IMG/VR virus record: IMGVR_UViG_3300029288_004137
Location: 96,001 to 160,000 of that record
Reading direction: 5' to 3' (one strand)
Length of the DNA: 64,000 nt
Source of the DNA: a virus
Taxonomy: Duplodnaviria > Caudoviricetes
Under the pieces are notes generated by a model, which saw only the letters and a list, made by a program, of their open reading frames with translations, did no database searches and was not told the DNA's origin. Position numbers and translations under genes: made by a program. Positions 7,474 to 47,441 of this stretch are shown piece by piece; within the stretch, counting starts at the first letter, position 1, and each line of letters opens with the position of its first letter.

Positions 7474-8118
7474 CTAAATTATTTTATCAACTAATCCATA
7501 TTTTAAACATTCTTCCGAAGATAACCAAGTATCTTTTTTTAATAAATCATCTAAAAATTCAGACTCCATATGAGTTTTTGTCAAATACCATTTTTTCATT
7601 GTTTCCATAAATTTCTTTTCATTCTCTACTTCTTCCAATAATTCTTGGAATTTGCCAAAAAGACTAGCTGTTTGTTGATGAATCATCATAAATGATTTTT
7701 TAGTGATTAATCGTTGTTTCCCAGATAAAAAGAATAACGATGCAGCAGAAGCAACATACCCTTCAGCATATGTTATTACATTCAATTTCGAATTCTCAAT
7801 TATATCAGATAATCTAAATCCATCTAAAAGATATCCCCCAAAAGAAGATATATGAATATTTATAGGAATAATGTCAATAGGAAGTTCCCACTCAATAGAC
7901 TGAATTTGAATTCTTTTTTCAAGTTTTTTGAAACTTAAAATAAATTCTTTTACAGAAGTAGGATCAACAAATGAATTAAAATATAAATGATTATTATCTT
8001 CTTCTACCTTATTACTAGTTGATTGCGAATTGTTTTCATTTTTTGAATGAAAACATTCTTCTAATATTTTTGTATCTATTTTATCCATTTTAGCTCCAAT
8101 GTAAATATGTTTCTTCAT
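7474..8118 (-). CDS. clpP: ClpP-like serine protease
   Basis: ISSFGG, VASAAS (Ser), MMIHQ (His), DTWLSSEECLKYGLVDKI. Confidence 0.85.
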   Translation of the reverse strand: MKKHIYIGAKMDKIDTKILEECFHSKNENNSQSTSNKVEEDNNHLYFNSFVDPTSVKEFILSFKKLEKRIQIQSIEWELPIDIIPINIHISSFGGYLLDGFRLSDIIENSKLNVITYAEGYVASAASLFFLSGKQRLITKKSFMMIHQQTASLFGKFQELLEEVENEKKFMETMKKWYLTKTHMESEFLDDLLKKDTWLSSEECLKYGLVDKII

Positions 8119-8443
8119 CTTCTTGCTTTGACTCTTTTATATCTTCTTTTATATCTTCTTTTAAATCCATTATACTTTTTAAATCAACAAAAAAATAAAC
8201 ATTGCTTTTATCTTTTGCTTTATATAAATAAGTCTTACTATTAATACAAAAATTCTTTAAATCAAAAACTTCAACTATTTCTAATTCCAATGGTTCTTTA
8301 TAATTAAGAAACGAAACAGTGATTTTATCACCCTGTCTCAGACATAATTTCCATTGATCTTTGTCATTAATAACGCTTGCTCCATACATATCACTATATG
8401 TTGAATTTAAAACTTCAACATCATAAGATGTTTCTAATAACAA
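8090..8443 (-). CDS. Hypothetical protein
   Basis: 117-aa ORF with SD AGGAG. Confidence 0.6.
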   Translation of the reverse strand: MLLETSYDVEVLNSTYSDMYGASVINDKDQWKLCLRQGDKITVSFLNYKEPLELEIVEVFDLKNFCINSKTYLYKAKDKSNVYFFVDLKSIMDLKEDIKEDIKESKQEDEETYLHWS

Positions 8444-8461
8444 TCGATTTCTCCTAATAAT

Positions 8462-8923
8462 TTATTTTTTGTCGGAACTCCCAAGACAAGAATCGTCTCT
8501 ATTCGAGATAACAAAAGCATCATCATATAAATTATCGTCAAAACTTTCTATTAAATTACAAGAAATTACCGGTACTAATACTAATTGAGCTATCTTATCA
8601 TAGCACTTGACTTCAACTTCTTTGTTTGAAATATTGTGAAGATCAATAAAAACTTCTCCATTATAACCTGCATCAATTAAATGAGCTCCATAAACTAATC
8701 CTTTTTTAGCTGCCATACTACCTCTATTCATAACCTGAAGCATATAACCGTGCTCAACACAGAACTTAATCCCTGTTCCAAATAAGTAGTTTTCTCCAGG
8801 TTTAAGGATTATACTTTTTATATTATCTTGTGGGCACCAATAAACATCAATCCCTGCATCACTCGGATGTGCTCTTGTCGGAAATTTAACATTTGGATAT
8901 ATTCTGAAATATTGCAATAACAT
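8462..8923 (-). CDS. dut: Trimeric dUTPase
   Basis: DAGID, NRGS, LIDAGYNGE, KIAQLV, RxxxxLGSSD; start placed at MLLQYF after GGAGG. Confidence 0.9.
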   Translation of the reverse strand: MLLQYFRIYPNVKFPTRAHPSDAGIDVYWCPQDNIKSIILKPGENYLFGTGIKFCVEHGYMLQVMNRGSMAAKKGLVYGAHLIDAGYNGEVFIDLHNISNKEVEVKCYDKIAQLVLVPVISCNLIESFDDNLYDDAFVISNRDDSCLGSSDKK

Positions 8924-8953
8924 TTTGCCTCCTATATTTAATTTTATATAACA

Positions 8954-8982
8954 ATCATACAATATTTTTTATTTTTTGTCAA
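8954..8982 (-). promoter_or_regulatory. Sigma70-type promoter
   Basis: TTGACA-17 nt-TATGAT upstream of dut. Confidence 0.75.
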
Positions 8983-8992
8983 GAAATAAATT

Positions 8993-11176
8993 TTACGAAA
9001 GTTTCTTTATATTTGATATTGTAGTGCTCAATCCCCATTGATCCTTTTTAATTTTTGCCATGTATAAACCATTCTTAAATAAAACACTATTCTGTTTAAC
9101 ATCCCAACATTTAAGATTTGTTCCATATCCAGTGTTATCAATCACATCTAATATCCAATAATCTTTACCTGTTTTTGTTTTAAGTTTTTTAACATCTTTT
9201 AGAATAAACCAAGAAATTAAGTCATATGCACTATATTGTGAAATAGGTTTTATATCTATTTCTTTAAATTTATTTAAAATATAATTACTTAATACAAGAT
9301 AATAAGGATACATACCTGTTAATTCTGATATAAATGAAACTTTTTCTGATTTTTCAAAATCATGCATTCCTTTGTGTTCTTCAATATTCCTTCTTAATTC
9401 TGATAATGTTTTTGGTCTATCTTCTGCTACAGATAACCAAAAATGATTAAGATTCTCAAATCTTTCATCCATTAAATTATTTAATGCTCCACATTTAACA
9501 AGAGCACTTATAATTTTTTTATTTACTTTTCTATATATCATATCTTCATTAAAAAGTAAATCCTCTATTTTAGAATATGGTCTATGTTTAATAATTTCTT
9601 TGGCAGATTCTAATCCTATCCCTTTTATGGCAGTTAAAGGTTGAATAACTGAGAATTCATCTTGATCATCTGCTTCCCAATTAAGATTGGATTTATTTAT
9701 ATCACAATTCTTAATTGTAAATCCATTCTTTTGGACATTCGCAATTGCTATATCCTTATTCAATTCTGACTCTTTATCCAAATATGAACAAACCCACTCA
9801 ATCGGATAATAATACCACAACCAAGCACATTGATAAGAAAGAATTGAATAAGAGCAGCTATGACTGTTTGATACAGATATATCATTAGCATAAAATGTAT
9901 GATCTTCACTTTCTACTTCTAAATCATATGTTTCTTGAAATTCTCTATGAAATATTGCATCTTTTATTTTTTCTGCATGATGTTTCATCAAAATTTTTTC
10001 TCCTTTAGAAAGAATCTTTTTTAATGTCATCATTCCTTTTAATGTTTCTATTTTATGATCTAAAGTACAAGTAAGAGTATATCCATTAAATGTTTTTATT
10101 TCCATAACTTTCTTCTTTCCTTGCTTTATAACATCTTTAACTAAAACAAAACCATTTTTACTATTTACTTTCTCTCCTACTTGAACTTCACTTATTTTCT
10201 TATATCCAGTTAATGTTTCTACTAAAGTATTTTCACTTAAACATTTATTAAATCCATAACCACTAAAAAATACAAAGGTTTTCCAAATACGATCTGCATC
10301 TAATTCTGAAATATTTTTTTCTAAACATCCATTGATAAATTTTGTATAAAGTTTATTTTTAACTTCTTCTTCTTTTCCAGTCCCCTTTTTTGTTAAAACT
10401 TTTCTTAATAGATTTCCTTCACTAAGATTTATGTCTTTCCCAAGTCTATGTGCTATTGAAGCAATTTGTTCCTGATATACAAGAAACCCATAGGTTTCTT
10501 GTGTTTCTTCTTTCATTATTGAATGAACATATTTGATATTATTTGGATTGCCTTTTGCTTGTAAATATTGTTTATCAACATTTGCACTTAATGGCCCTGG
10601 TCTGTATATAGCTGTTATGTTTGAGAGTTCATTAATATTTAACGGTTTTGCTTCTTTACAAAAAGATTGTGCTCCTTCTTCTGTAAATTGAAATATTCCA
10701 ACAAACTTTCCTTTATGAAATATATTTTCATAAATATTTTTATCATTAAAATCAATAGCATCAGGATGAAGATTTTTGTTATAAAATTCTTTGATCTCTT
10801 CAAAAGAAATATTTTCTTTCTTTAAAGATTTTTTAAGAATTCTTCTAATTGTTTCTCCAACCATCTTCAAAGATGATAATCCAAGAAGATCAAACTTGAT
10901 AAATCCCATGGGTTCTAAATGTCTTACATTCTGTCCTTCTGACCAAGGTGATTGTATAACACCACCATTAGAAATTAAAGGTATTAATTTATTTAAGTTC
11001 TCTGCTACAAGAATCCCCCCAGCATGGGAGCTACAATTACTTAATATTATTGAGTTTTTTACTATTATGTTTGGATGTTTATCAAAAAAATATTTGTAAT
11101 TTAAATTATGATGAATATCAAAAACTTTTCGTTTCTTTTCAAGAATTTTAATAGATTTAATCTTTAATAATTTCAT
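8993..11176 (-). CDS. dnaE: DNA polymerase III alpha, C-terminal piece (IntC2 + extein with cis mini-intein)
   Basis: SHAGG, KFDLLGL, GIFQF, YRPGP, YQEQ, GYGFNK/SH, HhH (IKGIG), C-terminal OB-like region. Confidence 0.92.
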   Translation of the reverse strand: MKLLKIKSIKILEKKRKVFDIHHNLNYKYFFDKHPNIIVKNSIILSNCSSHAGGILVAENLNKLIPLISNGGVIQSPWSEGQNVRHLEPMGFIKFDLLGLSSLKMVGETIRRILKKSLKKENISFEEIKEFYNKNLHPDAIDFNDKNIYENIFHKGKFVGIFQFTEEGAQSFCKEAKPLNINELSNITAIYRPGPLSANVDKQYLQAKGNPNNIKYVHSIMKEETQETYGFLVYQEQIASIAHRLGKDINLSEGNLLRKVLTKKGTGKEEEVKNKLYTKFINGCLEKNISELDADRIWKTFVFFSGYGFNKCLSENTLVETLTGYKKISEVQVGEKVNSKNGFVLVKDVIKQGKKKVMEIKTFNGYTLTCTLDHKIETLKGMMTLKKILSKGEKILMKHHAEKIKDAIFHREFQETYDLEVESEDHTFYANDISVSNSHSCSYSILSYQCAWLWYYYPIEWVCSYLDKESELNKDIAIANVQKNGFTIKNCDINKSNLNWEADDQDEFSVIQPLTAIKGIGLESAKEIIKHRPYSKIEDLLFNEDMIYRKVNKKIISALVKCGALNNLMDERFENLNHFWLSVAEDRPKTLSELRRNIEEHKGMHDFEKSEKVSFISELTGMYPYYLVLSNYILNKFKEIDIKPISQYSAYDLISWFILKDVKKLKTKTGKDYWILDVIDNTGYGTNLKCWDVKQNSVLFKNGLYMAKIKKDQWGLSTTISNIKKLS
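9866..10243 (-). mobile_element. Cis mini-intein (126 aa) in DnaE at FNK|SH
   Basis: CLSENTLV start, TxxH block B (TCTLDH), YDLEV block F, SVSN|S end. Removal restores GYGFNKSH. Confidence 0.92.
11036..11176 (-). mobile_element. Split intein C-fragment, DnaE pair 2 (47 aa)
   Basis: KIKSIK...VFDI...HPN...ILSN|CSSHAGG. Confidence 0.85.
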
Positions 11177-11966
11177 TTATTTTTCCTAAAACATAGTTTT
11201 CAAATTGTTTATCATCCATTTCTTTATATTCTTTTTCCCAAATATAAAGAATTTTTATTCCTTCTTTTTCAACAACATCTTTTTTTCTTTCATCATGTTC
11301 CCAAACATTCTTTGCTAATTTAGCATCCTTTCTTCCTTTTTTAACTATAAAATTTTCATCATATATTCTTGGATCACAATGCCAATACGAACCATTAAAT
11401 TCTATTGCAACATTTTTTTCAAGAAGTAAAAAATCTAATTCATAAATTTTAATTCTTTTATGATGAACAAATGGAATATTAGCATTAATTAATATTTCTT
11501 TTATTCTTTTCTCTCCCGAAGAACACCAACCTTTACAAAAACATGCAAAAGAAAACGAAGCCATTTTTTCTTTCTTTTCTTCCGACATCCTAAAATATGG
11601 GTTATTTTTTCCTTTTCTACTATCAGCATATTTTTTTATAGAAGGATGATCTTTTTTTGTTAAACCTTTATTCCAAGGTCCTCCTCTTTTTTTGCTCCAT
11701 ATTTTTATTGCTTCACTTGTATTTCTGCGAATAATTTCATATTTTTTTAGGATCTTTAAAATTCCCTCTTTTCCAGGAGTTAATCCCATATTTTCTGCTT
11801 TTATCTTTTTTGAAATTTCAAAAGCAGAAAATCCTTCAAAATACAAACTAACAACATCTATCAATTCATATTTTTTTAAATATTCATCAATATATATTTT
11901 ATGACTTCTAAAAATATGTTTTGATAAAGATAAAAACTTTCTGTTACAAATTTTACAAATGTACAT
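11157..11966 (-). CDS. Free-standing homing endonuclease (C2H2 finger, NUMOD3-like, Vsr/DUF559-like nuclease) inside the DnaE intein break
   Basis: CKIC..H..H, PWNKGLTK, YELDF..AIEFNGSYWH..D..K..GIKILYIWE. Confidence 0.82.
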   Translation of the reverse strand: MYICKICNRKFLSLSKHIFRSHKIYIDEYLKKYELIDVVSLYFEGFSAFEISKKIKAENMGLTPGKEGILKILKKYEIIRRNTSEAIKIWSKKRGGPWNKGLTKKDHPSIKKYADSRKGKNNPYFRMSEEKKEKMASFSFACFCKGWCSSGEKRIKEILINANIPFVHHKRIKIYELDFLLLEKNVAIEFNGSYWHCDPRIYDENFIVKKGRKDAKLAKNVWEHDERKKDVVEKEGIKILYIWEKEYKEMDDKQFENYVLGKINEIIKD

Positions 11967-11972
11967 CTTATA

Positions 11973-12016
11973 ATACCTCCAGCAAAATTCACATATAATT
12001 AGTTTGCTGGAGGTAT
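11973..12016 (-). promoter_or_regulatory. 14-bp-stem hairpin sequestering the endonuclease SD, with ACTAATTA in the loop
   Basis: ATACCTCCAGCAAA / TTTGCTGGAGGTAT perfect inverted repeat. Confidence 0.8.
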
Positions 12017-12032
12017 CTTTTTCCTTTTTAAT

Positions 12033-12884
12033 TTAAAGATTTAAAGAAACAAAAAAATCTTCTTTTAATAAATCCTTTACTTGTTTATATCCATTTTGTG
12101 TTAAAACTTCATGATCTCCTGTTAATTCCAAATAACTCCCATCCTCTAATTCAATTGAAAAAACTTCTTTTTCTCCTAAAAAATAAACTTCATAATCATC
12201 ATTAAAATTTAACTTTCCCGAATAATCAAAATATGCTATAGAATCTTTATTTATATCTTTTATGTTTTTATATCCATTTAATGTCAAAATCTCTACTTTA
12301 TCTGTAAAACATGAACGAATCTGCTTACTTAGAGCTTTTATATGTTTTTCTAAGAATGGGTATTTTTCAAGATATTCCCTCAATGTCCCAGAATATTTTT
12401 TTAATTCTTCAAATGTAGGAGTATAAGCACCTGCTTGTATTCCATGTTCTTTTTTAATCTCAGACAATGATTCTTTTACCATTTTCGTTGTAACAGAATT
12501 AACTTCCTGATAATCAATTCCATAAAATTTTGATAAATCTTTTATAAGACTTTTTATCTGAAATGTATTCCAATTCGAAATTAAAACAACATTATCTTGC
12601 CCCCATTCATTAATAAGAAATTCTTTGAATTCTGTTGCTTCTGCTAAATCATAATCTATATCAGGAAATCCACCACCCTCTTCATCTCTAAGAAATCTTT
12701 CAAATTGAAGATTCCATCTTATAGGGTCTACTTCAGTGATATTTAATAAATAAGATATGAGACATCCAGCGCTTGAATTATGAACTGCTAAACCTTCTAT
12801 ATTATATGTATGTGTGTTTTCTACACATAAATCATAAACTTTTCCATCATAATGCTCATATTCAATCTTTTTAATTTTTATCAT
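12033..12884 (-). CDS. dnaE: DNA polymerase III alpha, middle piece (IntC1 - 155-aa extein - IntN2)
   Basis: SSAGCLISYLLNITEVDP, FERFL, FPDIDYD catalytic motif. Confidence 0.92.
   Translation of the reverse strand: MIKIKKIEYEHYDGKVYDLCVENTHTYNIEGLAVHNSSAGCLISYLLNITEVDPIRWNLQFERFLRDEEGGGFPDIDYDLAEATEFKEFLINEWGQDNVVLISNWNTFQIKSLIKDLSKFYGIDYQEVNSVTTKMVKESLSEIKKEHGIQAGAYTPTFEELKKYSGTLREYLEKYPFLEKHIKALSKQIRSCFTDKVEILTLNGYKNIKDINKDSIAYFDYSGKLNFNDDYEVYFLGEKEVFSIELEDGSYLELTGDHEVLTQNGYKQVKDLLKEDFFVSLNL
12036..12311 (-). mobile_element. Split intein N-fragment, DnaE pair 2 (92 aa)
   Basis: QIRS|CFTDKVEILT...LTGDHEVLTQNG...stop. Confidence 0.9.
12777..12884 (-). mobile_element. Split intein C-fragment, DnaE pair 1 (36 aa)
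   Basis: MIKIKKIEY...VYDLCVENTHTYNIEGLAVHN|S. Confidence 0.92.
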
Positions 12885-12904
12885 TTTTTAATTTCCATGT
12901 ATAA

Positions 12905-13834
12905 TTAAATTTCTACAATTTCATCATTTTCATTTAATTTTTCTGCTTCTTTCCATCCGTTTTTAGTTAATATTTTATGTTCTTTGGTACATTGAATAAT
13001 TCTTCCATCTTCTAATTCAATTTTAATAATCTCTTCTGAAACAGAATATTTAAATAAATCCAAAATTATATTATTTGAACCATCATGAGATATAACAGAA
13101 TCACCCTTTTTTATATCTTGTATGTTTTTAAAACTTTTATCTGCCATCTTTACTTTTGAATCTTTTAAAAAACATCCTCTTCCTGAAGAGACCAGTTGCA
13201 TCTTTTTTGCTTTGTCAGATATTGCTTTCATTGTTAAGAAATATCCAGCAAATCCTCTTTTAAGGATAACTCCTAATTCTTTTGAGAGACGTTCTTTATA
13301 AATTGTATTATTTGCAAATTTTGATGAATTAAAGATATCCCAAACTATTTGAGAAAATGTTTCTTCTGAACTTTTATCTGAAGAAACTATAAATGTAGGT
13401 AATTTTATGCTTCTTTCTGGTAGAAAATCTTCTATTATTGAATGTGCTATTTCATATGTCTTTTCTATTGATTCTGATACAATTGCCCAATCATAATCGA
13501 CATTAGCAATATTAGAATATTTTTTAGCGGATTCAAATACTTGATCTCCATTCTTTGGATATAATTCATAACCAATTTCTTCAACACTCTTTGGTAAAGG
13601 ATTTAAACTTTTTGAAGATAACCAACCTAACCTTTTATATAATTCTCTACTTTCCCATAATTCTGGTCTTGGATAATGAACATCACAAGTTGATATAAGT
13701 TCAAGATCAATTTCATGATGAAGTTTAATAAGAAGTTTATTAATTATGTGTTGTTCATTTAACGAATTCCATTGAAGTTCTCCATACCAATTTTTTCCAA
13801 AAATCTCTCTCATTTTTAAAGTTAAATTTTTCAT
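12905..13834 (-). CDS. dnaE: DNA polymerase III alpha, second piece (PHP C-half and palm start + IntN1)
   Basis: IFGKNWYGELQ, TCDVHY, YKERLSKEL, GFAGYFL, SGRG|C. Confidence 0.9.
   Translation of the reverse strand: MKNLTLKMREIFGKNWYGELQWNSLNEQHIINKLLIKLHHEIDLELISTCDVHYPRPELWESRELYKRLGWLSSKSLNPLPKSVEEIGYELYPKNGDQVFESAKKYSNIANVDYDWAIVSESIEKTYEIAHSIIEDFLPERSIKLPTFIVSSDKSSEETFSQIVWDIFNSSKFANNTIYKERLSKELGVILKRGFAGYFLTMKAISDKAKKMQLVSSGRGCFLKDSKVKMADKSFKNIQDIKKGDSVISHDGSNNIILDLFKYSVSEEIIKIELEDGRIIQCTKEHKILTKNGWKEAEKLNENDEIVEI
12908..13174 (-). mobile_element. Split intein N-fragment, DnaE pair 1 (89 aa)
   Basis: GRG|CFLKDSKVKMAD...CTKEHKILTKNGWKEA...stop. Confidence 0.92.
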
Positions 13835-14412
13835 TTCTTCAAGAACTTTTTCTCACCAAGATAATTAAACTTATAATAAACATTTGCATACATCCCTCCA
13901 ATACAAGCAGATGAAGCAATAATGTTATTTCCCAATTCTTTAAGAATTTTATAATCAATTCTTGGTTTTTTATAAAAGCCATTCTTAAAAGAATAACTTA
14001 TTAATTCAAATAAATTGTTTAATCCTTTTTGATTTTTTGCTAAAAGCAAGATATGACTTCTATTCGAAAGAGAATCTTTAAATTCTCTTTCCGTTTCATC
14101 TTCCGATACAAATCCTTTAACCTTTTCTTTTTTATCTTTTTTATCAGATGATTTTTCTTTTTCTTTTTTCCATTCATCAATGCTATCAATATAATATGCT
14201 TCAACTCCAAAAATAGGTTTGATTTTTCTACCTTCTTTATTCATTTTTATAGAATGAAATAATTGATAAGTCATACCAGACATATTTCCATGATCTGTTA
14301 ATGCAATCGCATCCATACCATTCTCATATGCATATTCCATCGATTCTTGAGGATATCCTAAAGCATCAAATGTAGAAAAATTACTATGAACATGAAGATT
14401 AATGAATTTCAT
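13831..14412 (-). CDS. dnaE: DNA polymerase III alpha, N-terminal PHP piece
   Basis: LHVHSNFS, ALTDHGN, PIFGVEAY, HILLLAKN, FYKKPRID, SSACIGG. Confidence 0.9.
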   Translation of the reverse strand: MKFINLHVHSNFSTFDALGYPQESMEYAYENGMDAIALTDHGNMSGMTYQLFHSIKMNKEGRKIKPIFGVEAYYIDSIDEWKKEKEKSSDKKDKKEKVKGFVSEDETEREFKDSLSNRSHILLLAKNQKGLNNLFELISYSFKNGFYKKPRIDYKILKELGNNIIASSACIGGMYANVYYKFNYLGEKKFLKK

Positions 14413-14839
14413 ATAATCGCTCCAAAATCAAAAATTTAACATAAAAACTATTAACTTGAGAAAATATTTTTTTTAATTCTGATTCTTTATAACAAGAAAT
14501 TAAATATTTAGCAACATCAAAATGTCCATTTTCTGCTGCCAATTTTAAAGAACGATCATACCAAGCATAAATATTAGCACCACATTCAACAAGATATTTA
14601 ACAATACCCAAATAACCTTGATATGAAGCATATCTTAAAGCAATATCATTATCAATATGAATATTAGCACCAATCTCAATAAAGTATTTAATAATATCAA
14701 GATGTCCATATTCTGCTGCTGTTCTTAAAGCATAACCATCCCAAGTATTAATATCGAAACCATTTTTAATATATTCTTTGACTCGTTGAATATTATTGTT
14801 TTTAATTACATTAATAAAACCATTGTAATCATAATTCAT
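14399..14839 (-). CDS. Ankyrin-repeat protein
   Basis: ALRTAAEYGHLDIIKYFIEIGANIH repeats. Confidence 0.9.
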   Translation of the reverse strand: MNYDYNGFINVIKNNNIQRVKEYIKNGFDINTWDGYALRTAAEYGHLDIIKYFIEIGANIHIDNDIALRYASYQGYLGIVKYLVECGANIYAWYDRSLKLAAENGHFDVAKYLISCYKESELKKIFSQVNSFYVKFLILERLYEIH

Positions 14840-15248
14840 AATATCTTTCCAAAATCAAACATTTAACATAAAAATTATTTTTTTTAAAATCATCATCATA
14901 AAAAGAATAATCAGTATAAAAAGAAACATTTTTACTCTTACTATTATAATAATCTTCAATATTGAAAAATAACTCTTTCAATTCTGTTTTTGTATATAAA
15001 GAAAGCAAATATTTAACAATATCAAAATTTTTATGAATTATTGACCATCGTAAAGCATAATCATTATTAGCATGAATTTTAGCACCTTTTTCAACTAAAT
15101 ATTTAATAATACCTAAATGTTTTTTACATTCACCTATTGCTGCTCTAAAATGGAAATCATTGTTTTCATGAATAATATCAATATTCTGCTCAACCAATTC
15201 TTTAACTTTCTGAAATTTTCCATGAACAACTGCATCAAATAAATCCAT
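14829..15248 (-). CDS. Ankyrin-repeat protein
   Basis: IIKYLVEKGAKIHANNDYALRW. Confidence 0.85.
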   Translation of the reverse strand: MDLFDAVVHGKFQKVKELVEQNIDIIHENNDFHFRAAIGECKKHLGIIKYLVEKGAKIHANNDYALRWSIIHKNFDIVKYLLSLYTKTELKELFFNIEDYYNSKSKNVSFYTDYSFYDDDFKKNNFYVKCLILERYYEL

Positions 15249-24424: not shown

Positions 24425-26767
24425 CTTGTCTGCTTCTTCTCCATTTATAATGTATTTCTTCAAAACTCTTGCTAAAGTTTTATTAATACTCGTAAAATCA
24501 GAATCAGGATCATCTTTATTTAACTGCTCTACCAAGATTCTTGGTTTCGCTCCATGTCTTAAAGAATTAGAAATTAATCGCGTTAATGTTCCATGATTAG
24601 GATTTTTAAATGTTTTCACAACGTCAAGAACAAATCCATCATTTTCTTTATCAAAAATAAGATCATAATGACTTGGTTTTGTTTTATAAGAATGCTTTAC
24701 AAGAATACCTTTTTTATACGCAGTTGGTATTCCTACAAAAAAAGATCTTCCTGCAAACACTTCATATGGTTTACCATTCATTAATCCAACAAAAACAATC
24801 CATTTTTTACTTTTTACGTTAATGTGATGTATATCACATTCAAGTTCTTTCGGTCTTATTACTGCATCAACTTGATGAAAATTTGTAGGTTGTTCTAACA
24901 TATCTTTTGATACAAGAACTCCCTTCCTACATCCCTCAACAAAGACGGTAATTCCTTTTAATTTTTTTGACCACGCTTCTTCATATATTGTTCCTACGGT
25001 TTCAGATGTAGTCCCTATTGGAAGATTTATTGTGCTTGAAATTGACTGATCTATATGTCTTTGAATTGCAGACTGCATTTCTATTCTTTGTTTCCATGGA
25101 ACATTATTGCTTTCAATAAAAATATCTGGTGTATCATTTTTATTTGTTACATTTTGATAATCTTTAATATTCTTGTGAAACACATCGTAAGAAAACCATT
25201 TTTCTCCATCTTCAGTTACTTCTGCATTTAAAAACTTATCTTGCTCATCAAAATTAAGTTTTCTTCTTCTCTTGTAAGAGTTTCTGAAAATAGGTTCAAT
25301 ACCAAAACTTGTTTGTGCAATAATAGATACACCTGCTGTTGGCGCATTTGTTAATATCGATATATTTCTTCTACCAAAGTTTTCCATATCTTTAATAACA
25401 TCTGGAGTAAAAGAATTAAAAAATTTGCAAGTTCTTTCTTTCTTCCAATTAAAAATTGGAAAAATCCCTCTTTCAATACCTAATTTAATACTTTCTTGAT
25501 ATGCACCTAATTTTAATTCTTCATATATCATATCTGTCATTTCTATCGCTTCAGGACTTCCATAAATCATATTTAAACGAGACAAAGCATCAGCTAACCC
25601 GTTAGTTCCCAATCCTGTTCTTCTCCCTTCCTGAGCAGATTTAATAAGTTTCTTCCAAATTTCTTTTTCATCTTCTTCGTCTGTAATTTCAATTAAATTA
25701 TAAAGTTTTTCAATTTCTAAATCAATTAAATCGTCTGATAAACGCATTGCTACAGAAACAACTTTTCTAAAAGTATTCAAATCAACAAATGAATTAGGTG
25801 AAAAAGGATTAACAATAAAATTCTTTAAATTAATTGAAATAAGTCTGCAAGAGTCATATCCACTTAAAGGTATTTCTCCACAAGGATTTGTAGTTAATGC
25901 TTCGAATCCTTCTTCTTTATAGAAATGAGCAGGAAGATAATTTGTGATATTATCCCACATTAATAATCCTGGATCTCCTGTTTTTGTAGCACAATTTATG
26001 ATTTTATTCCAAAGATCTAACGCTTTTATAGTTTTTGTATATTTAGGTTCTTTTGAATTTATTGGCCATTTCAAAACAAACTCTTCATTGTGCTGAACAG
26101 CTTCCATAAAACTATCTGTTAATTTAACAGAAATATTCGCTCCTGTAACTTTTTGTAAATCTTCTTTTAATGAAATAAATTTTTCTATGTCTGGATGCTG
26201 AACATCCATTGATATCATTAATGCTGCTCTTCTTCCGTTTTGTCCTATTAACTTACAAACAGAAGAATAAAAATCAACAAATGACCAGGCACCTGTTGAT
26301 GTACCAGCACTATTATTAACTGCTGCTCCACTTGGTCTTAATGTAGAAACATCAATTCCTACTCCACATCGTCTTTTAAAAAGATTTGCTAAATCTCTTG
26401 CAGAGTTAAATATACCAGACATTGTATCCAATGGAGAATCTACAACAATACAATTTGATAAAGAAGAATTGCTATAACTATTCCCTATCCCAAACATTGG
26501 AGATCCTTGCGGAATAATATATTTAAAATCTTTAAAATAAGAATAAATTTCATCTTCTGTTAAAGGTTTCATATAATTTGATTCAATTCTTGCAAATTCT
26601 TTTGCAAGTCGATGATGCATATCATCAGGTGTTAATTCCAAAAAATTACCTTTTTTATCTTTTAAAGCATACTTTTTCATCCACGTATCTGTAGCAAGAT
26701 GATCATCATCAAAATATTTTAAAGTAGCTTCCTTTACTTCATCTAAAGAATAAAACTGTTTTGTCAT
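24338..26767 (-). CDS. nrdJ: Class II (adenosylcobalamin-dependent) ribonucleotide reductase
   Basis: SLSNC, TNPCGE, RRTGLG, APT, DQSISSTINLP, TSCPD-like domain and C-terminal CxxC..CxxCxxC; no NrdB gene in the window. Confidence 0.85.
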   Translation of the reverse strand: MTKQFYSLDEVKEATLKYFDDDHLATDTWMKKYALKDKKGNFLELTPDDMHHRLAKEFARIESNYMKPLTEDEIYSYFKDFKYIIPQGSPMFGIGNSYSNSSLSNCIVVDSPLDTMSGIFNSARDLANLFKRRCGVGIDVSTLRPSGAAVNNSAGTSTGAWSFVDFYSSVCKLIGQNGRRAALMISMDVQHPDIEKFISLKEDLQKVTGANISVKLTDSFMEAVQHNEEFVLKWPINSKEPKYTKTIKALDLWNKIINCATKTGDPGLLMWDNITNYLPAHFYKEEGFEALTTNPCGEIPLSGYDSCRLISINLKNFIVNPFSPNSFVDLNTFRKVVSVAMRLSDDLIDLEIEKLYNLIEITDEEDEKEIWKKLIKSAQEGRRTGLGTNGLADALSRLNMIYGSPEAIEMTDMIYEELKLGAYQESIKLGIERGIFPIFNWKKERTCKFFNSFTPDVIKDMENFGRRNISILTNAPTAGVSIIAQTSFGIEPIFRNSYKRRRKLNFDEQDKFLNAEVTEDGEKWFSYDVFHKNIKDYQNVTNKNDTPDIFIESNNVPWKQRIEMQSAIQRHIDQSISSTINLPIGTTSETVGTIYEEAWSKKLKGITVFVEGCRKGVLVSKDMLEQPTNFHQVDAVIRPKELECDIHHINVKSKKWIVFVGLMNGKPYEVFAGRSFFVGIPTAYKKGILVKHSYKTKPSHYDLIFDKENDGFVLDVVKTFKNPNHGTLTRLISNSLRHGAKPRILVEQLNKDDPDSDFTSINKTLARVLKKYIINGEEADKQYCPDCGSQLIYIDGCVSCSQCGWGKCS

Positions 26768-27228
26768 TTCTTAACTCCCGATTTAAATGCCTTATATTTA
26801 CTATTAAGTAATTTCTTTGTATTGTTTTCTGTTTGTTCATTTATTTCACTTATAGAAAGATTTAACTTTTCTAACACTTTGATTGATACATTTGATGTAT
26901 CAATCTCCATTGGATATATAATACCATCTATACCATTGCGATTTTTAGCAATAAACATTCTTCCTACGTTTTTATTCTTATCTTCAATAGTTCTTGATAC
27001 TGAAAAAATAAAATCTGCAACAAAACATTTGTTAAATGCTTCACTTATTGATTCCATTGTTATAACCTCAGCATTAAGACCAGAATTATGAGTTAAAACA
27101 CCGTTTGAAAGAAAATACATGTGCTCCGATTCTATAGTTATATCAACAGTATTTCCTTCACCATATAATTCTATACTTTCAATTTCATCTATAATAAAAT
27201 CATTTTTATTCAATTTATGTTTGTTCAT
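26764..27228 (-). CDS. Replicative helicase C-terminal piece (IntC + extein)
   Basis: THN|SGLNAEVITMESISEAF...ADF...AKNRNG. Confidence 0.9.
   Translation of the reverse strand: MNKHKLNKNDFIIDEIESIELYGEGNTVDITIESEHMYFLSNGVLTHNSGLNAEVITMESISEAFNKCFVADFIFSVSRTIEDKNKNVGRMFIAKNRNGIDGIIYPMEIDTSNVSIKVLEKLNLSISEINEQTENNTKKLLNSKYKAFKSGVKK
27085..27228 (-). mobile_element. Split intein C-fragment of helicase (48 aa)
   Basis: DEIESIE...TVDITIESEHMYFLSNGVLTHN|S. Confidence 0.92.
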
Positions 27229-28321
27229 TCACTTCACCTTTTAAAATAAAAGCAATACACTTTTTTAATATTTCAACCGGATATTCTTTATATTCTTTTT
27301 CTTTAATTCTCAGCACTTCATACCCTTTGCTAATCAAAATTAAAGTTTTAATTTTATCTTTGTTTTTAATTTTATCTTTTTTATGCCAATATTCTCCATC
27401 AAATTCAATTATTTTATTTTTATATATAAAATCAACCATAAAATAATATCCACCACCTAATTCTGAATATTCTTTGAATTTAAATCGCTTTTCTTTATTA
27501 AGACTAGCATATTTAACCAAATTTTCTTCTATTTTTGATAATTCTACAATTTTTTTAAATAACTTCTGTGATATTTTTGAATAAGTTGTTGAACTTAATC
27601 TTGCTCCTTTATATGACATTTCCTTCATATGTTTTTTATATTTTCTCCATTCTTTTTCTCCATCTTTTTCTCCATATTTTTTAATATACCAATTTTTTGT
27701 AAATCTTTTTCTTTGATTTTCTCTTCTATTTTTCCAAATCATATATCCTTCTTCTTCACCGTGATTTTTTATTAAATCTTCTAACTTTAATCCATTATCC
27801 CATCCACCTTTATTTTTAATTGATTTTCTCCATTTTTTAAGGTATTGCTCTTGTCTCTTTTTGCCTTCTTCTTCGCCATATTTTTCTATTTTTGATATTA
27901 AAGAAGTACATGCTTTTGATTTACAAAGATTTTTCCAGGACTCCTCTCCATATTTTTTAATATAATCTTGTTTATTAATCGATGATTTTTGATTTTTTTC
28001 TTTAAAAAATCTCAACCCAAGCGCTTCTCCATATCTACTTTCCATTGATTTCAAAGAACTACTATCATTTTTAAAAATTGTTTTTGATTTTATTATTCGA
28101 TCTACCCAAGGTAAAGGAACCTCATAAATAATCATTTTATACAACAAAGGAAATAAACTATATTTGTTCCAATCATTTTTTTTACAGACCTCTAATATAT
28201 TCCACAATTCTTCCTTTTGTTTTATAGAAAGTTTATTTTTATCTATATCTTGAAAATATTTACAAGAAATAAGATTTTTTACTTCATCCATCCAATTTTC
28301 ATTTTTTAACAAACAGTCCAC
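27215..28321 (-). CDS. Free-standing homing endonuclease (KYGEEEG repeats + Vsr/DUF559-like) inside the helicase intein break
   Basis: VDF..KIIEFDGEYWH..D..K..GYEVLRIKE. Confidence 0.82.
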   Translation of the reverse strand: MDCLLKNENWMDEVKNLISCKYFQDIDKNKLSIKQKEELWNILEVCKKNDWNKYSLFPLLYKMIIYEVPLPWVDRIIKSKTIFKNDSSSLKSMESRYGEALGLRFFKEKNQKSSINKQDYIKKYGEESWKNLCKSKACTSLISKIEKYGEEEGKKRQEQYLKKWRKSIKNKGGWDNGLKLEDLIKNHGEEEGYMIWKNRRENQRKRFTKNWYIKKYGEKDGEKEWRKYKKHMKEMSYKGARLSSTTYSKISQKLFKKIVELSKIEENLVKYASLNKEKRFKFKEYSELGGGYYFMVDFIYKNKIIEFDGEYWHKKDKIKNKDKIKTLILISKGYEVLRIKEKEYKEYPVEILKKCIAFILKGEVNEQT

Positions 28322-29633
28322 TTCCTTTCTCCAACCCTGTTTCTATCGATTTGAAATTTCCATCAATTACTGGAAACATATGCTTTTCAGAACATATAAT
28401 TTCTTTGCCAGATTTTAATTTAATCTTAAAGAGTTTTTGGTAATTTTTGTTTATATCAATCACTTTTTTCCATCCTACTTGTGTTTCTACTTCACTTCCT
28501 ATTTTTATCTTATTAATTTCTGTTTCAAAAATTTTGTCTCCTTCTCTTGTATATAGTAAAGTATTTTCAAAAAAGCATCTATTTGTTTGCGAAGCGGTAT
28601 ATACTGGACAATTAAATATTTTCGCCAATCCCCTCAAATCTTCATAAATGCTCTCTAAATCAAATCTTTTTTGTTCATAAGATTTAACAGAAGCTAATAG
28701 ATCTGCATAATCTACTATAATCATTCCTACATTTATTCCTCTTCTTTTCATTTTCTCAAGATGATTTCTAATTGTTATAACTGTTGCACCTTTGGTTGGA
28801 TATTCTTTTATTATTAATCGTCCTTTAACTTGTCCAATTTGATCAAAAACTTCATTTTTAAATCTTCCCAATTCATTTAGGGTAAATTTTGTTATGCAAC
28901 TATCATACCTTTTTCCTATAACAGTTTCTTGCAATTCTAAAGTATAATGAACAACATTAATACCTTGTAATAAAGCAGAAGCACCTAAATGAACCAAAAC
29001 CATCGATTTACCTGCACCTGTTGGAGCAATAACAACTCCTAATTCTTTTTTACCAAGTCCACCCTGTAATATTGTATCTATTTCAGACCATCCAGTTGAT
29101 ACCGGATCTCTATATTGAGGAAGATATCTTTCTTCAAAATCCTTAATATATTCATATCCCATATCAGAATCAGTCCCTAAAATTAATGCTGATGAAATAA
29201 GTTTATTAATTTCATCAAATGAAGATTTATTCATTAAGGGAATTGCTGCAAGAAACGCTTCTTTTAGTTTCTGCTTTTTACAGAAATCAACAGATTGTTC
29301 TTTTATATAATCTGATCCTTCTGGGAGATCTTTGCTTGATAATATTCTTGAAAAATATTCAATTACTTGCTTATTCACATTATTATTATCACTTTCTTGA
29401 GTCCTTATCATTGTTGTTAAGGTATCAAGAGAAGGATGAACACCATACTTGTCTGTATAATCATATAATTTTTCAACAAATGTCTGAAGATAAAGTGGTT
29501 CCAAAAAAGAAACTGGCATAACTTCACGCATTCTTTCACAAAAACTTCTGTCAAGAACCATTATTTTAACAAGTTTTTCTTGAAATTGAATTCCATAAGA
29601 AGAAAAACTTGTTTTTTCATTATCGTTTTTCAT
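28299..29633 (-). CDS. Replicative helicase (T4 gp41/DnaB-like) N-terminal piece + IntN
   Basis: APTGAGKS Walker A, IIVDYADL Walker B, TASQTNR|C. Confidence 0.92.
   Translation of the reverse strand: MKNDNEKTSFSSYGIQFQEKLVKIMVLDRSFCERMREVMPVSFLEPLYLQTFVEKLYDYTDKYGVHPSLDTLTTMIRTQESDNNNVNKQVIEYFSRILSSKDLPEGSDYIKEQSVDFCKKQKLKEAFLAAIPLMNKSSFDEINKLISSALILGTDSDMGYEYIKDFEERYLPQYRDPVSTGWSEIDTILQGGLGKKELGVVIAPTGAGKSMVLVHLGASALLQGINVVHYTLELQETVIGKRYDSCITKFTLNELGRFKNEVFDQIGQVKGRLIIKEYPTKGATVITIRNHLEKMKRRGINVGMIIVDYADLLASVKSYEQKRFDLESIYEDLRGLAKIFNCPVYTASQTNRCFFENTLLYTREGDKIFETEINKIKIGSEVETQVGWKKVIDINKNYQKLFKIKLKSGKEIICSEKHMFPVIDGNFKSIETGLEKGSGLFVKK
28302..28577 (-). mobile_element. Split intein N-fragment of helicase (92 aa)
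   Basis: CFFENTLL...ICSEKHMFP...stop. Confidence 0.9.
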
Positions 29634-44553: not shown

Positions 44554-47397
44554 TTAATCATTAAACGAAGCGCCTGTATCCGTGATTACAAAATCAATAT
44601 AGAATCTTTCTATTGACTTCGCTGGTTTTACAAATATTTTTGCATAAACTGCATTTCTGTCAATTAATTCAGGAGTTGTCGTTGTTTCATCTAAAATTAA
44701 CTTATATTCATATAAACCTAATCTTGTTTTTACACTCGCTAAGAAAGGTTCTGCTTTTCCTAAGAATGAATTCCAAGTAATTCTTACATTTTGATCAAAC
44801 AAAATATTAAGTGCCATTCTTGAAATTTCTTTCTTAAGATAAATCATAAGTCTTCTAACATTAATTCTATCAAGCGCACTTGCGGTTACTTGAAGAGTTT
44901 TTTGACCCCAAACAACGATTCCTTCTCTTGGGAACGATGCAATAGGGTTAATATTAGCAGCATAAAGTTTTTCTCTATCACTCGAAGTTAATTTTTCACG
45001 AACATTAATAACTGGCAATCCTGCTGCACCCGTACTTAATCCACCTCTATTAAATCCTGCTGGAGCAAACCAAAGCTCGCTATTCTTCTCACTCGAAGCC
45101 ATAACACCTATTGCTGCAACAGAAGGAGGAACCCAAAGCGAAGCATCTGATACTGTGTCTTGAATTCTAACCCATGGATAGAAACAACATCCATAACTAT
45201 TGTTTATTGATCTTGCTCTAAGATTTGAAATTGTTGTATCAACACTTCCTAATCTTGAAGATTCTGCATCAGTACTTTCTTCTTGTGGTGTATAATCTCC
45301 TACGAGATCAAAAACTGCTAAAGTATCTCCTCTGTCAGAAGCAACATCAAGCATATGCTGAGTTAAAGTAGTATTTGTAATACCAGGCATTGCTATTAAA
45401 TTCATTTCTACAACTTCTGCATCTGATACTGAATCAACCGCTCTTTTAACAGAATTAAAAGCATAGTTTGTTGTTTCTGTACCACCAGAAAGACCTGAAT
45501 TTCTAAAAGGTTCTTTCTCCCTAATATCAAGACCATCATGCCCACCAAACAACGGCATTGTGAATCTATCAAATCCCGCTGTTAATACAGATTCATATGT
45601 TCCACTTGCCGTTATAGAATCTCCCGTTAAACGACACCCATCAGAATATTCTCCAACAATTGCTGAACTTGCCTTGTATTTTATATCGTCTAAACTGAAT
45701 ATAAAGGATGTTTCTGTACCTGAGGTATCCGATGCATCATAAGAATCAACACTATCAGCTAAACAACGAACAATATCAGCATATGATTCATCATATGCTG
45801 TTGAACCGTATTGCTTTGTCGTAACTCCCCAATAAGATAATTTATTAGAAGGTAAATTATCTTCATTGCTATATGTTCTAAGGATAGGGCATGGGAAATA
45901 AAGATCTGCTGTAAATCCTACCAAACCTGTATGTGTTCCACCAGATCCTTCAGGAGTGGTATATGGATAAGGAATTGAACCTGAACCTTTTGTAAAAACT
46001 AAAGTTGTGCTATCATCACTATCTTTTAAAGCACTTCCAGATAGACAAACAATATACTTATATCTAGGAGGTCCATAAAATCCAAAAGGCAAATATGTTT
46101 TATTTAGTGATCCAGCATCCACGTCTTCATTCATTTCAACATAGACATACTTTGATTTATTATCATAATTACCATATTCTGTATATCTTCTTGTCGTATC
46201 ACTCCAAGACACATATTTATCACCAATTTGTTTTGCGATATAATTTGGTGATTTTGGATCTAAGTTACAACCAGAAAATTTCTCCAAAAGAATAACTGAA
46301 GAATCTTTATCACTTGCTTTTCTGATAACAACTGCAAAAGTTCCATAAGGATTTGCAGAATTTGTAGATGCTTTAACATCTTGAATAGAAATCTTTATAT
46401 TCTTTTGATCCCATTCACCTTTGTTGATAGAATGGAATCTAAACAATTTCGACATAGCAGTTTTGCTATAAACACTATAATCACCAAGATCTTGAGAAAT
46501 TATCCAACCTGTCTTTGATTCTTGCATTCCAAATGTATGCACTTGCTTGCTCTTTGTCGAATTTCCTAATGCAAGAATACATCCATATTGATATCCAGCT
46601 CCAGTTGTTTCTGTTAATTTATTGTATAAATATTGATCATATGTTTCACCTAACCAATATGATTGAAGATTTGCTGAATCTGTAATTGTAGAATTGATAA
46701 GTGTTGGATTTGTATTGAAAATTTCTCTAATATAATTTCTTGACGATTTACTAAAATTAAATGTTGCTGTCAAAGCAGTCATTCCAGAATCATTACCATC
46801 AATTATAGCTTTAAATTGATAATCTGCACCTGTTGATTTTACCCAAGTTGCTGCATTCGTTGTAACAACACCATCAATAGTTGTACCAGATAATCTAATA
46901 CTTCCTTCATTAAGATACCATACAGCTGCAAGAACTCCATCACCCATATCTGTTACACCAGCAGATCCAGAATCTACAATAAATAACCCATATGCTCCAC
47001 CATTTGTAGTATTAGATGTTGAAAATGATCCGCTTGTAGTCCATCCAGCATATCCAGCTGCAACAGCATCAGTGTTTTGAGCACCAAGCAAACGAACATA
47101 TGTTAAAGGTGTAGAATTCTTTAACCACGCTTGAGCAGCATAAACACCATATGTAGGAGCAAGATAATTCCCATCTCTCCAAACATCATCCCCAGAATTT
47201 CCTGGAATTGGATTACCAAAAATTTCAAGATATTCTGCAAAAGAACTAACTTGAACTGGTCTTAATCCTGGACCTCTCTCTGATCTTCCTATAATAACTG
47301 GACCTATTTGTGCAGCAGTTTTTGGTAATTGACTGTTATCTACCTCTGCTGTATAAACACCTGGACTTATAAACTTAAAATCTTTTGCTGATGCCAT
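44554..47397 (-). CDS. Tail sheath protein (gp18-like)
   Basis: SPGVY..EVD, WFAPAGFNRG, INPIA, VWGQKTLQ, LDRINVRRL; start placed at MASAKD. Confidence 0.95.
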   Translation of the reverse strand: MASAKDFKFISPGVYTAEVDNSQLPKTAAQIGPVIIGRSERGPGLRPVQVSSFAEYLEIFGNPIPGNSGDDVWRDGNYLAPTYGVYAAQAWLKNSTPLTYVRLLGAQNTDAVAAGYAGWTTSGSFSTSNTTNGGAYGLFIVDSGSAGVTDMGDGVLAAVWYLNEGSIRLSGTTIDGVVTTNAATWVKSTGADYQFKAIIDGNDSGMTALTATFNFSKSSRNYIREIFNTNPTLINSTITDSANLQSYWLGETYDQYLYNKLTETTGAGYQYGCILALGNSTKSKQVHTFGMQESKTGWIISQDLGDYSVYSKTAMSKLFRFHSINKGEWDQKNIKISIQDVKASTNSANPYGTFAVVIRKASDKDSSVILLEKFSGCNLDPKSPNYIAKQIGDKYVSWSDTTRRYTEYGNYDNKSKYVYVEMNEDVDAGSLNKTYLPFGFYGPPRYKYIVCLSGSALKDSDDSTTLVFTKGSGSIPYPYTTPEGSGGTHTGLVGFTADLYFPCPILRTYSNEDNLPSNKLSYWGVTTKQYGSTAYDESYADIVRCLADSVDSYDASDTSGTETSFIFSLDDIKYKASSAIVGEYSDGCRLTGDSITASGTYESVLTAGFDRFTMPLFGGHDGLDIREKEPFRNSGLSGGTETTNYAFNSVKRAVDSVSDAEVVEMNLIAMPGITNTTLTQHMLDVASDRGDTLAVFDLVGDYTPQEESTDAESSRLGSVDTTISNLRARSINNSYGCCFYPWVRIQDTVSDASLWVPPSVAAIGVMASSEKNSELWFAPAGFNRGGLSTGAAGLPVINVREKLTSSDREKLYAANINPIASFPREGIVVWGQKTLQVTASALDRINVRRLMIYLKKEISRMALNILFDQNVRITWNSFLGKAEPFLASVKTRLGLYEYKLILDETTTTPELIDRNAVYAKIFVKPAKSIERFYIDFVITDTGASFND

Positions 47398-47441
47398 TAT
47401 AAATCTCCGAAAGAATAACAAATGCTATTTATCATCAAATA

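Follow-up and report, generated by a model that had tools for sequence, protein, structure and literature searches.

A phage DnaE polymerase predicted to be assembled from three proteins by two different split inteins

Can a phage rely on a replicative DNA polymerase that is encoded in pieces, none of which carries all three catalytic aspartates? The question is raised by the DnaE locus of a virus known from a 209,974-bp IMG/VR record (IMGVR_UViG_3300029288_004137; rated 100% complete by CheckV), of which bases 96001–160000 are the 64,000-nucleotide stretch analyzed here (the window). DnaE is distributed over open reading frames (ORFs) that end in N-terminal (IntN) or begin with C-terminal (IntC) intein halves, and a search of the whole record with the DNA_pol3_alpha model found this locus as the sole DnaE match. 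The evidence supports a model in which the only replicative DNA polymerase of the phage is a DnaE made as three proteins that would need two different split inteins to become one.

Pieces, inteins and the predicted polymerase

Four DnaE ORFs in the window (table 1; P- and L-numbers denote metagenomic proteins and loci) tile phrog_405, the phage DnaE family of PHROGs, collinearly at positions 42–184, 197–406, 407–550 and 547–1041. In Pfam and PHROGs comparisons, PHP, DNA_pol3_alpha, fingers, HHH_6 and Hint/Intein_splicing domains are found at matching places in these ORFs. The locus thus has the features of a C-family polymerase: PHP domain, PDxD motif in the palm, third catalytic aspartate, fingers, HhH and a collinear full length. 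These matches and the translations agree with the ORF anatomy and the lengths of intein halves given in a preliminary description of the locus. Its inventory was correct for the DnaE ORFs but did not list the endonuclease gene at 11157–11966, between IntN2 and IntC2.

Residues typical of class-1 inteins (Hint fold) are present at each interruption. Intein 1 has Cys1 after GRG, a CTKEHK block B and the end HN|SSAG, and its Cys1 and block B are likewise found in N pieces of two related contigs (L004 and L008). Intein 2 reads IRS|CFTDK, TGDH and ..ILSN|CSSHAGG, its penultimate residue being Ser, not His. Halves of both inteins are on separate ORFs, split at the canonical point of endonuclease insertion, and sum to mini-inteins of 125 aa (89 + 36) and 139 aa (92 + 47). 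The ATG of IntC1 is 20 nt past the stop of IntN1 and in a different frame, and the ATG of IntC2 overlaps the 3' end of the endonuclease gene P0004. A third intein is uninterrupted and lies between GYGFNK| and |SHS in P0005. The preliminary description had named two different split inteins and one cis mini-intein, which is borne out by class-1 residues in all three and by Hint/Intein_splicing matches. With the residue set complete in every case, standard protein splicing is the simplest reading.

Joining the exteins by script yields a product of 1122 aa, close to the approximately 1120 aa predicted before. Splicing in silico had been proposed as a check, and the product aligns end-to-end with five intein-free DnaEs (1136–1146 aa) at 47–50% identity and is gap-free at every junction. 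Intein-free relatives read GRG|SAAG, RS|CSRHAGG and GFNK|SHA at the junctions, and thus natively carry the +1 Cys of site 2. With Thermus aquaticus (Taq) DnaE (2HPI/3E0D) as the reference for mapping, site 1 is inside RG|SAAG, site 2 is 3 residues ahead of HAAG and the residues on either side of the cis intein meet exactly at K815|S816.

Splicing residues are conserved in diverged relatives, which were collected by a word-indexed search plus an exhaustive search. Across ten middle pieces (36–58% identity), H35, N36, S37, Cys192, T255 and H258 are invariant. The same is true of V18, D20, I21 and H23 (block F), N47 and C48 of IntC2 across 14 C pieces (34–53% identity), all of which keep the start Met. 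The middle piece carries PDIDYD and the C piece KFDLLGL, so that the three catalytic aspartates, which we take to correspond to those of Escherichia coli DnaE, are never all on one piece. On this point the preliminary description, in which no single ORF was held to be sufficient, was right.

We consider it probable that three translated pieces are joined by two split inteins and that the cis intein excises itself. Selfish elements would have broken DnaE into an N (502 aa in intact copies), an M (283 aa) and a C piece (727 aa), each break falling where class-1 mini-inteins are canonically split. Once the pieces are translated, IntN1 of the N piece would pair with IntC1 of the M piece, and IntN2 of the M piece with IntC2 of the C piece. 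Each Hint domain so formed is predicted to undergo an N-S acyl shift at Cys1, then trans-thioesterification to the +1 nucleophile (Ser or Cys) and finally cyclization of the terminal Asn. With the third intein excised in cis, the product would be a contiguous 1122-aa polymerase. The P0004 endonuclease gene is probably the mobile element that created or maintains the break at site 2, and site 1 would since have lost its endonuclease gene. What the sequences establish is the anatomy, the exactness of the junctions, the conservation of splicing residues and the reproducibility of the locus; the occurrence of splicing and the orthogonality of the two pairs are inferred.

The two ligations are independent of each other and have no required order. 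They need only pairs that do not cross-react, because IntN1 joined with IntC2 would skip the catalytic middle and IntC1 joined with IntN2 would circularize it. The intein halves of the window, of four kinds, are 24–37% identical to each other, and 15 of 16 distinct split inteins were mutually orthogonal in vivo (Pinto 2020; PMC7090010); orthogonality is therefore required yet unsurprising. The preliminary description had proposed sequential trans-splicing with two orthogonal split inteins. Trans-splicing is what the sequence predicts and orthogonality is needed, though as the default for divergent inteins, but "sequential" does not hold.

Structure prediction bears on the least canonical pair, IntN2/IntC2, for which no solved relative was detectable by sequence. 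A model of the complex of IntN2 (residues 187–283) and IntC2 (residues 1–58) has a score of 0.79, compared with 0.01 for the best of 3 controls. Of solved complexes, 58 of 80 attained this mark, as did 2 of 110 mismatched pairs; because the model was built on custom alignments, these counts apply to it only roughly. The partner has a predicted local distance difference test (pLDDT) value of at least 79, and runs share at least 94% of contacts. This model is support for binding, not a demonstration of it, and its pass may come partly from likeness to solved split inteins. An AlphaFold2 fold of the whole middle piece (mean pLDDT of 59; below 50 in residues 14–36 of IntC1) is too poor for the pairing of IntC1 and IntN2 to be read from it.

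Net charge does not provide a general rule for how a middle piece avoids cyclizing itself. Among relatives, IntN2 is strongly acidic in 16 of 16 (−6 to −16), IntC2 is mostly mildly basic and IntC1 ranges from −5 to +5. Repulsion between like, acidic charges fits the middle piece of the window (−2 and −10), but IntC1 is net positive in six of nine relatives with such pieces, and we rejected this explanation as a general one.

Table 1. Positions of DnaE pieces, inteins and other features in the window
Feature	Position	Strand	Match or remark
P0001, 193 aa, N-terminal part of DnaE PHP domain	13831..14412	-	Pfam PHP 1.8e-32; phrog_405 42-184
P0002 ORF, rest of N piece + IntN1	12905..13834	-	stop TAA 12905-12907
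P0002 residues 1-220, N-extein of intein 1: rest of PHP, palm start, end ...SSGRG	13175..13834	-	
IntN1, 89 aa, Cys1 (CFLKDSKV), block B TKEH	12908..13174	-	Hint 4e-8; gp41-1 intein 2e-5
P0003, middle (M) piece, 283 aa: 36-aa IntC1 + 155-aa extein + 92-aa IntN2	12033..12884	-	
IntC1, 36 aa, block F VYDLCVENTHTY, end ..AVHN, +1 Ser	12777..12884	-	
Middle extein, 155 aa, SSAG...PDIDYD...KQIRS (palm, two catalytic Asp)	12312..12776	-	Taq DnaE 424-521
IntN2, 92 aa, Cys1 (CFTDKVEILT) after KQIRS, block B TGDH, net charge -10	12036..12311	-	then TAA 12033-12035
RNA hairpin pairing GGAGG ribosome-binding site of P0004 with upstream CCUCC	11972..12017	-	-22.5 kcal/mol
P0004, 269 aa, free-standing homing endonuclease: N-terminal C2H2-like zinc finger, WNKGLTK module, putative C-terminal Vsr-like core (ELDF...IEFNGSYWH)	11157..11966	-	phrog_3339 2e-10; phrog_559 2e-9
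P0005, C piece, 727 aa: 47-aa IntC2 + exteins 3 and 4 + 126-aa cis mini-intein	8993..11176	-	
IntC2, 47 aa, VFDIHHNL...HPNIIV...ILSN, penultimate Ser, +1 Cys, net charge +8	11036..11176	-	
Extein 3, 264 aa: CSSHAGG, KFDLLGL (third catalytic Asp), fingers, up to GYGFNK	10244..11035	-	DNA_pol3_finger 3e-34; Taq 571-815
Cis mini-intein, 126 aa, CLSENTLV..., block B TLDH, block F YDLEVESEDHTF, end VSN, +1 Ser	9866..10243	-	gp41-1 intein 2.8e-11
Extein 4, 290 aa plus stop: SHSCSYS..., HhH, C-terminal OB region	8993..9865	-	HHH_6 2.5e-14
Helicase N part, ending TNR|C + 92-aa IntN	28299-29633 (IntN 28302-28577)	-	gp41-1 intein E = 2.5e-10
Endonuclease, 368 aa, DUF559/Vsr-like	27215-28321	-	passes DUF559 cut-off
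48-aa IntC (..THN|S) + helicase C part	26764-27228	-	
Tail sheath gene	44554-47421		
Major head protein gene	55550-57334		

The breaks and alternative explanations

Three other assemblies of the locus (a 209,843-bp contig in ENA, a Logan contig from SRR8542065 and a JGI contig) have 99.97% identity. The single indel relative to them is at 13852/13853, where the window reads GGTGAGAAAAAG and L010 and L011 read GGTGAAGAAAAAG. The other two long assemblies have GGT GAA GAA AAA GTT and the window is one A short. This extra A merges P0001 and P0002 into a single 502-aa ORF in the two other assemblies. Because these two hold the A, the true layout is three DnaE ORFs, and the fourth ORF is peculiar to this record, be it an error or a variant. 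The description of DnaE as encoded in four ORFs is thus accurate for the two breaks at inteins but not for the one in PHP, which results from a 1-nt deletion. A programmed −1 frameshift at GAG AAA AAG was also considered for the PHP break and dropped, as other assemblies show a plain extra base.

Were the four-ORF state real and functional, a separate 193-aa PHP protein would be made by coupled translation and associate with the other pieces noncovalently. In this record, P0001 stops at a TGA that overlaps the ATG of P0002, the ATGA overlap suits such coupling and the Met at which P0002 restarts is a native internal Met. The deleted base is outside any long homopolymer, making a simple sequencing slip less likely than usual. 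Nevertheless we regard this state as unlikely, given the intact ORF in two assemblies of the same phage, the N pieces of relatives, which are single ORFs of 523–766 aa, and a break that falls within the PHP fold and has no intein to rejoin it.

Several points weigh against assembly by splicing. The N piece of this record is frameshifted and, given that, this particular DnaE copy might be defective. Every sequence in the comparison is a metagenome assembly. The charges of intein 1 (−3 for IntN1 and −2 for IntC1) have no obvious complementarity, and IntC2 is atypical: it is 47 aa long, its blocks F and G are far apart and Ser takes the place of the penultimate His. This Ser is noncanonical and would fit intein halves that are dead for splicing and merely dimerize, clamping three polymerase fragments together noncovalently. 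We find such a clamp improbable. It needs neither Cys1, T-x-x-H, terminal Asn nor +1 nucleophile, but all are present in the three inteins and invariant in relatives (34–58% identity), and the cis intein also has a penultimate Ser yet must splice to restore GYGFNKSH.

The frameshift in the PHP region of this record, together with heavy invasion by mobile elements, is also what could be expected of a decaying pseudogene in a phage that uses the polymerase of its host. This is very improbable compared with assembly by splicing. All pieces are open, the HVHS, PDIDYD, KFDLLGL, HAGG and GYGFNKSH motifs are intact, exteins are 47–50% identical to full-length DnaEs throughout and the same pieces are conserved across many lineages.

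Neither read-through nor recoding can join P0002 and P0003, which differ in frame and have a TGA and a TAA between them in the read-through frame; recoding of the stop codon at IntN1/IntC1 is ruled out on the same grounds. The view that the inteins are contiguous and that both stops, after IntN1 and after IntN2, arose by faulty assembly or sequencing has only the general fallibility of metagenome assemblies in its favor and is effectively refuted: four assemblies agree base for base at both stops, IntN1 and IntC1 differ in frame with further stops between them, 809 nt of endonuclease gene are between IntN2 and IntC2, and diverged relatives have homologous stand-alone pieces with a conserved start Met. 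The other three assemblies keep both intein-flanked stops, the endonuclease gene and the C piece. Their agreement contradicts the preliminary description's proviso that stops at 12905 or 12033 could be assembly errors and, together with the middle pieces of diverged relatives in which splicing residues are invariant, excludes assembly error for both intein breaks.

Relatives, endonucleases and genome context

DnaEs with several split inteins recur in uncultured phages and are not unique to this one. Stand-alone middle pieces organized as IntC1–extein–IntN2 are found in P0006, P0010, P0016, P0155, P0232, P0017 and P0019–21, with an additional cis intein in the PDID motif of P0017 and P0019–21. 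Other relatives (P0007, P0009, P0011, L017 and L018) are split at site 2 only and are missing intein 1, while ∼20 cluster representatives begin with IntC1 only. Among 13 full C pieces, 3 have the cis intein at FNK|SH, and its absence from the other 10 is precise. The giant proteins P0253 (1814 aa) and P0193 (2788 aa) have cis inteins with nested endonuclease domains at these sites. Across IMG/VR loci with the most similar extein, 77 of 80 have no intein half at these sites, indicating that the split state is in the minority. Intein-free, cis and split alleles at the same sites are as expected of mobile inteins, and the sites act as independent targets. In annotated phages, megablast of the locus found no match. 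A tblastn search with the middle piece reached 91% coverage in the Carpasina group of Xanthomonas phages, a hit rejected as a candidate since it reflects extein similarity only, the gene there being 942 aa and intein-free.

Fragmentation is more advanced in other lineages. The 57-kb contig L004 has, in order, N-IntN1, a TnsA-like nuclease, IntC1-M-IntN2, a P0004-like endonuclease, IntC2-fingers-IntN3, an endonuclease, IntC3-extein-IntN4 and an endonuclease. Its DnaE therefore has at least four split inteins, the fourth at the site of the cis intein of the window. The P0004-like endonuclease (L004:6896-9813) is interrupted by an insertion sequence element on the opposite strand (TnpB/Cas12f-like, 7612-8865; serine resolvase, 8858-9427); DnaE here contains one mobile element nested within another. 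In L008, a contig of 72 kb that is also available from NCBI, DnaE is interrupted by three split inteins. At L008:9602-10869, a 40-aa IntC ORF (..VIHN|CYQ) overlaps by 4 nt the ORF that continues DnaE (MMQIAEF...), which points to a frameshift in that record of much the same sort as the PHP break of the window. In L006 and L014, M and C pieces are adjacent, the endonuclease gene is absent and the N piece is not within 6–8 kb. P0267 (1080 aa) encodes a NUMOD4/HNH_3 endonuclease in frame on the N-terminus of IntC1, followed by a DnaE extein and a cis intein at site 2, and may be an intermediate between nested and free-standing endonucleases.

The endonuclease gene at site 2 resembles known homing endonucleases to differing degrees. 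Comparison of P0004 with I-Bth0305I (3R3P) gives E = 0.003, and the match to Pfam MTES_1575 is weak (19.5 bits, under its cut-off). Its IEFNGSYWH core is shared with the endonuclease of a helicase locus described below. The hairpin over the ribosome-binding site of P0004 has z = −5.3 and none of 200 shuffles was as good. A free-standing endonuclease between intein halves, as in the fractured genes of Dassa et al. (2009), is present at site 2; site 1 has a 20-nt gap only. P0004 is also in frame with P0003, with only the TAA stop and 22 sense codons between them (11967-12035). The shared frame is not conserved in L004 and is probably due to chance.

A second fractured gene in the window (26764-29633, minus strand) encodes a DnaB/gp41-like helicase, likewise with an endonuclease gene between intein halves (table 1). 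The charges of its intein (+4/−6) are the reverse of those of DnaE pair 2. Counted with the two of DnaE, the phage encodes three split-intein pairs. We lean, with reservations, toward a broader scenario in which homing-endonuclease cassettes have progressively shattered DnaE of this group into three to at least five pieces, so that productive infection would depend on a coevolved, orthogonal set of split inteins working simultaneously in one cell (here, two for DnaE and a third for the helicase; in L004, at least four for DnaE), and in which middle pieces would be insulated from self-cyclization by something other than charge.

The window has a G+C content of ∼27% and its minus strand carries nearly all genes. 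Genes for a tail sheath and a major head protein indicate a large, myovirus-like phage of 210 kb. A scan of 8800-14700 for promoters and terminators found fewer promoter-like sites than in shuffles and no minus-strand terminator between DnaE pieces. Directly upstream of DnaE are genes for two small ankyrin-repeat proteins (139 and 146 aa; 14399-15248, minus strand; also L010:1636-2485). A 497-aa free-standing homing endonuclease (53900-55393, minus strand; phrog_3339 1e-80) is encoded directly downstream of the major head protein gene, and it and P0004 share the zinc finger, WNKGLTK module and nuclease core (E = 3e-9). Outside the window, the same phage has a full-length cis intein (Intein_splicing 8e-21, profile positions 4-155) within a 1044-aa ORF at G000:C1:163678-164754.

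Comparison with known systems

Fractured genes of environmental phages were described by Dassa, London, Stoddard, Schueler-Furman and Pietrokovski (2009; PMC2677866) and include loci DnaE-1, -2 and -3 with one split intein each. Site 2 and the helicase locus share their organization, in which a split intein interrupts a phage replication gene and its halves are separated by a gene for a free-standing Vsr-like endonuclease (putatively Vsr-like at site 2) that has a hairpin over its start (Fig. 4 of PMC2677866). Here, in contrast, two split inteins flank a 155-aa extein on a stand-alone ORF and the complete genome surrounds the locus. Site 1 deviates from the layout in having a 20-nt gap and no endonuclease gene, which matches a later step of their model, endonuclease loss. 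Two split inteins in one gene are only hinted at in that study, where a short read probably caught a middle piece of this kind. The locus extends the fractured-gene layout to several splits and is not a new kind of system. Full-text literature searches, whose coverage is incomplete and leaves most subscription papers outside, found no description of a natural protein assembled via two split inteins.

The locus is of value for its complete genomic context, for the third split intein that the helicase of the same phage carries and for the natural orthogonal sets that it points to. It is a record of the extent to which an essential gene can be cut up by selfish endonucleases and survive, and related phages show all intermediates at the same sites: intein-free, cis, split with an endonuclease gene and split without.

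The split DnaE intein of cyanobacteria (Ssp/Npu DnaE) is similar in that a C-family polymerase is rejoined by protein trans-splicing. It was described by Wu, Hu and Liu in 1998, as cited in PMC2677866. The dnaE gene of Trichodesmium is a multi-intein case, combining one split intein with cis inteins. Cyanobacterial DnaE has one split intein per gene with halves at distant loci, whereas the phage has two split inteins. The cyanobacterial insertion site is presumably Y|CFNK, 4 residues upstream of the phage cis intein (FNK|SH). None of the three phage sites coincides with it, the cis intein being nearest. A difference between phage and cyanobacterial sites was also reported for other phage DnaE inteins (PMC2677866). 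The nearest solved relative of IntN1, the cis intein and the helicase IntN is the gp41-1 split intein (PDB 6QAZ/6RIZ), from which host protein and sites differ.

Natural protein trans-splicing is known as a two-piece reaction, and this polymerase, with its two split inteins (three or more in relatives), would be a natural form of the tandem ligation that engineers have built. Engineered tandem trans-splicing (PMC7090010; PMC12707363, on three-segment labelling; PMC7210297) likewise uses three segments, two split inteins that do not cross-react and a middle segment organized as IntC–cargo–IntN. If our model is true, such phages hold ready-made intein sets that selection has tuned to the speed of infection, with no cross-reaction and no circularization of the middle segment, and natural, mutually compatible tools for protein ligation could come from them. 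Engineered sets are laboratory designs from inteins of different origins; that of the phage is natural, belongs to one genome and is accompanied by a third pair in the helicase.

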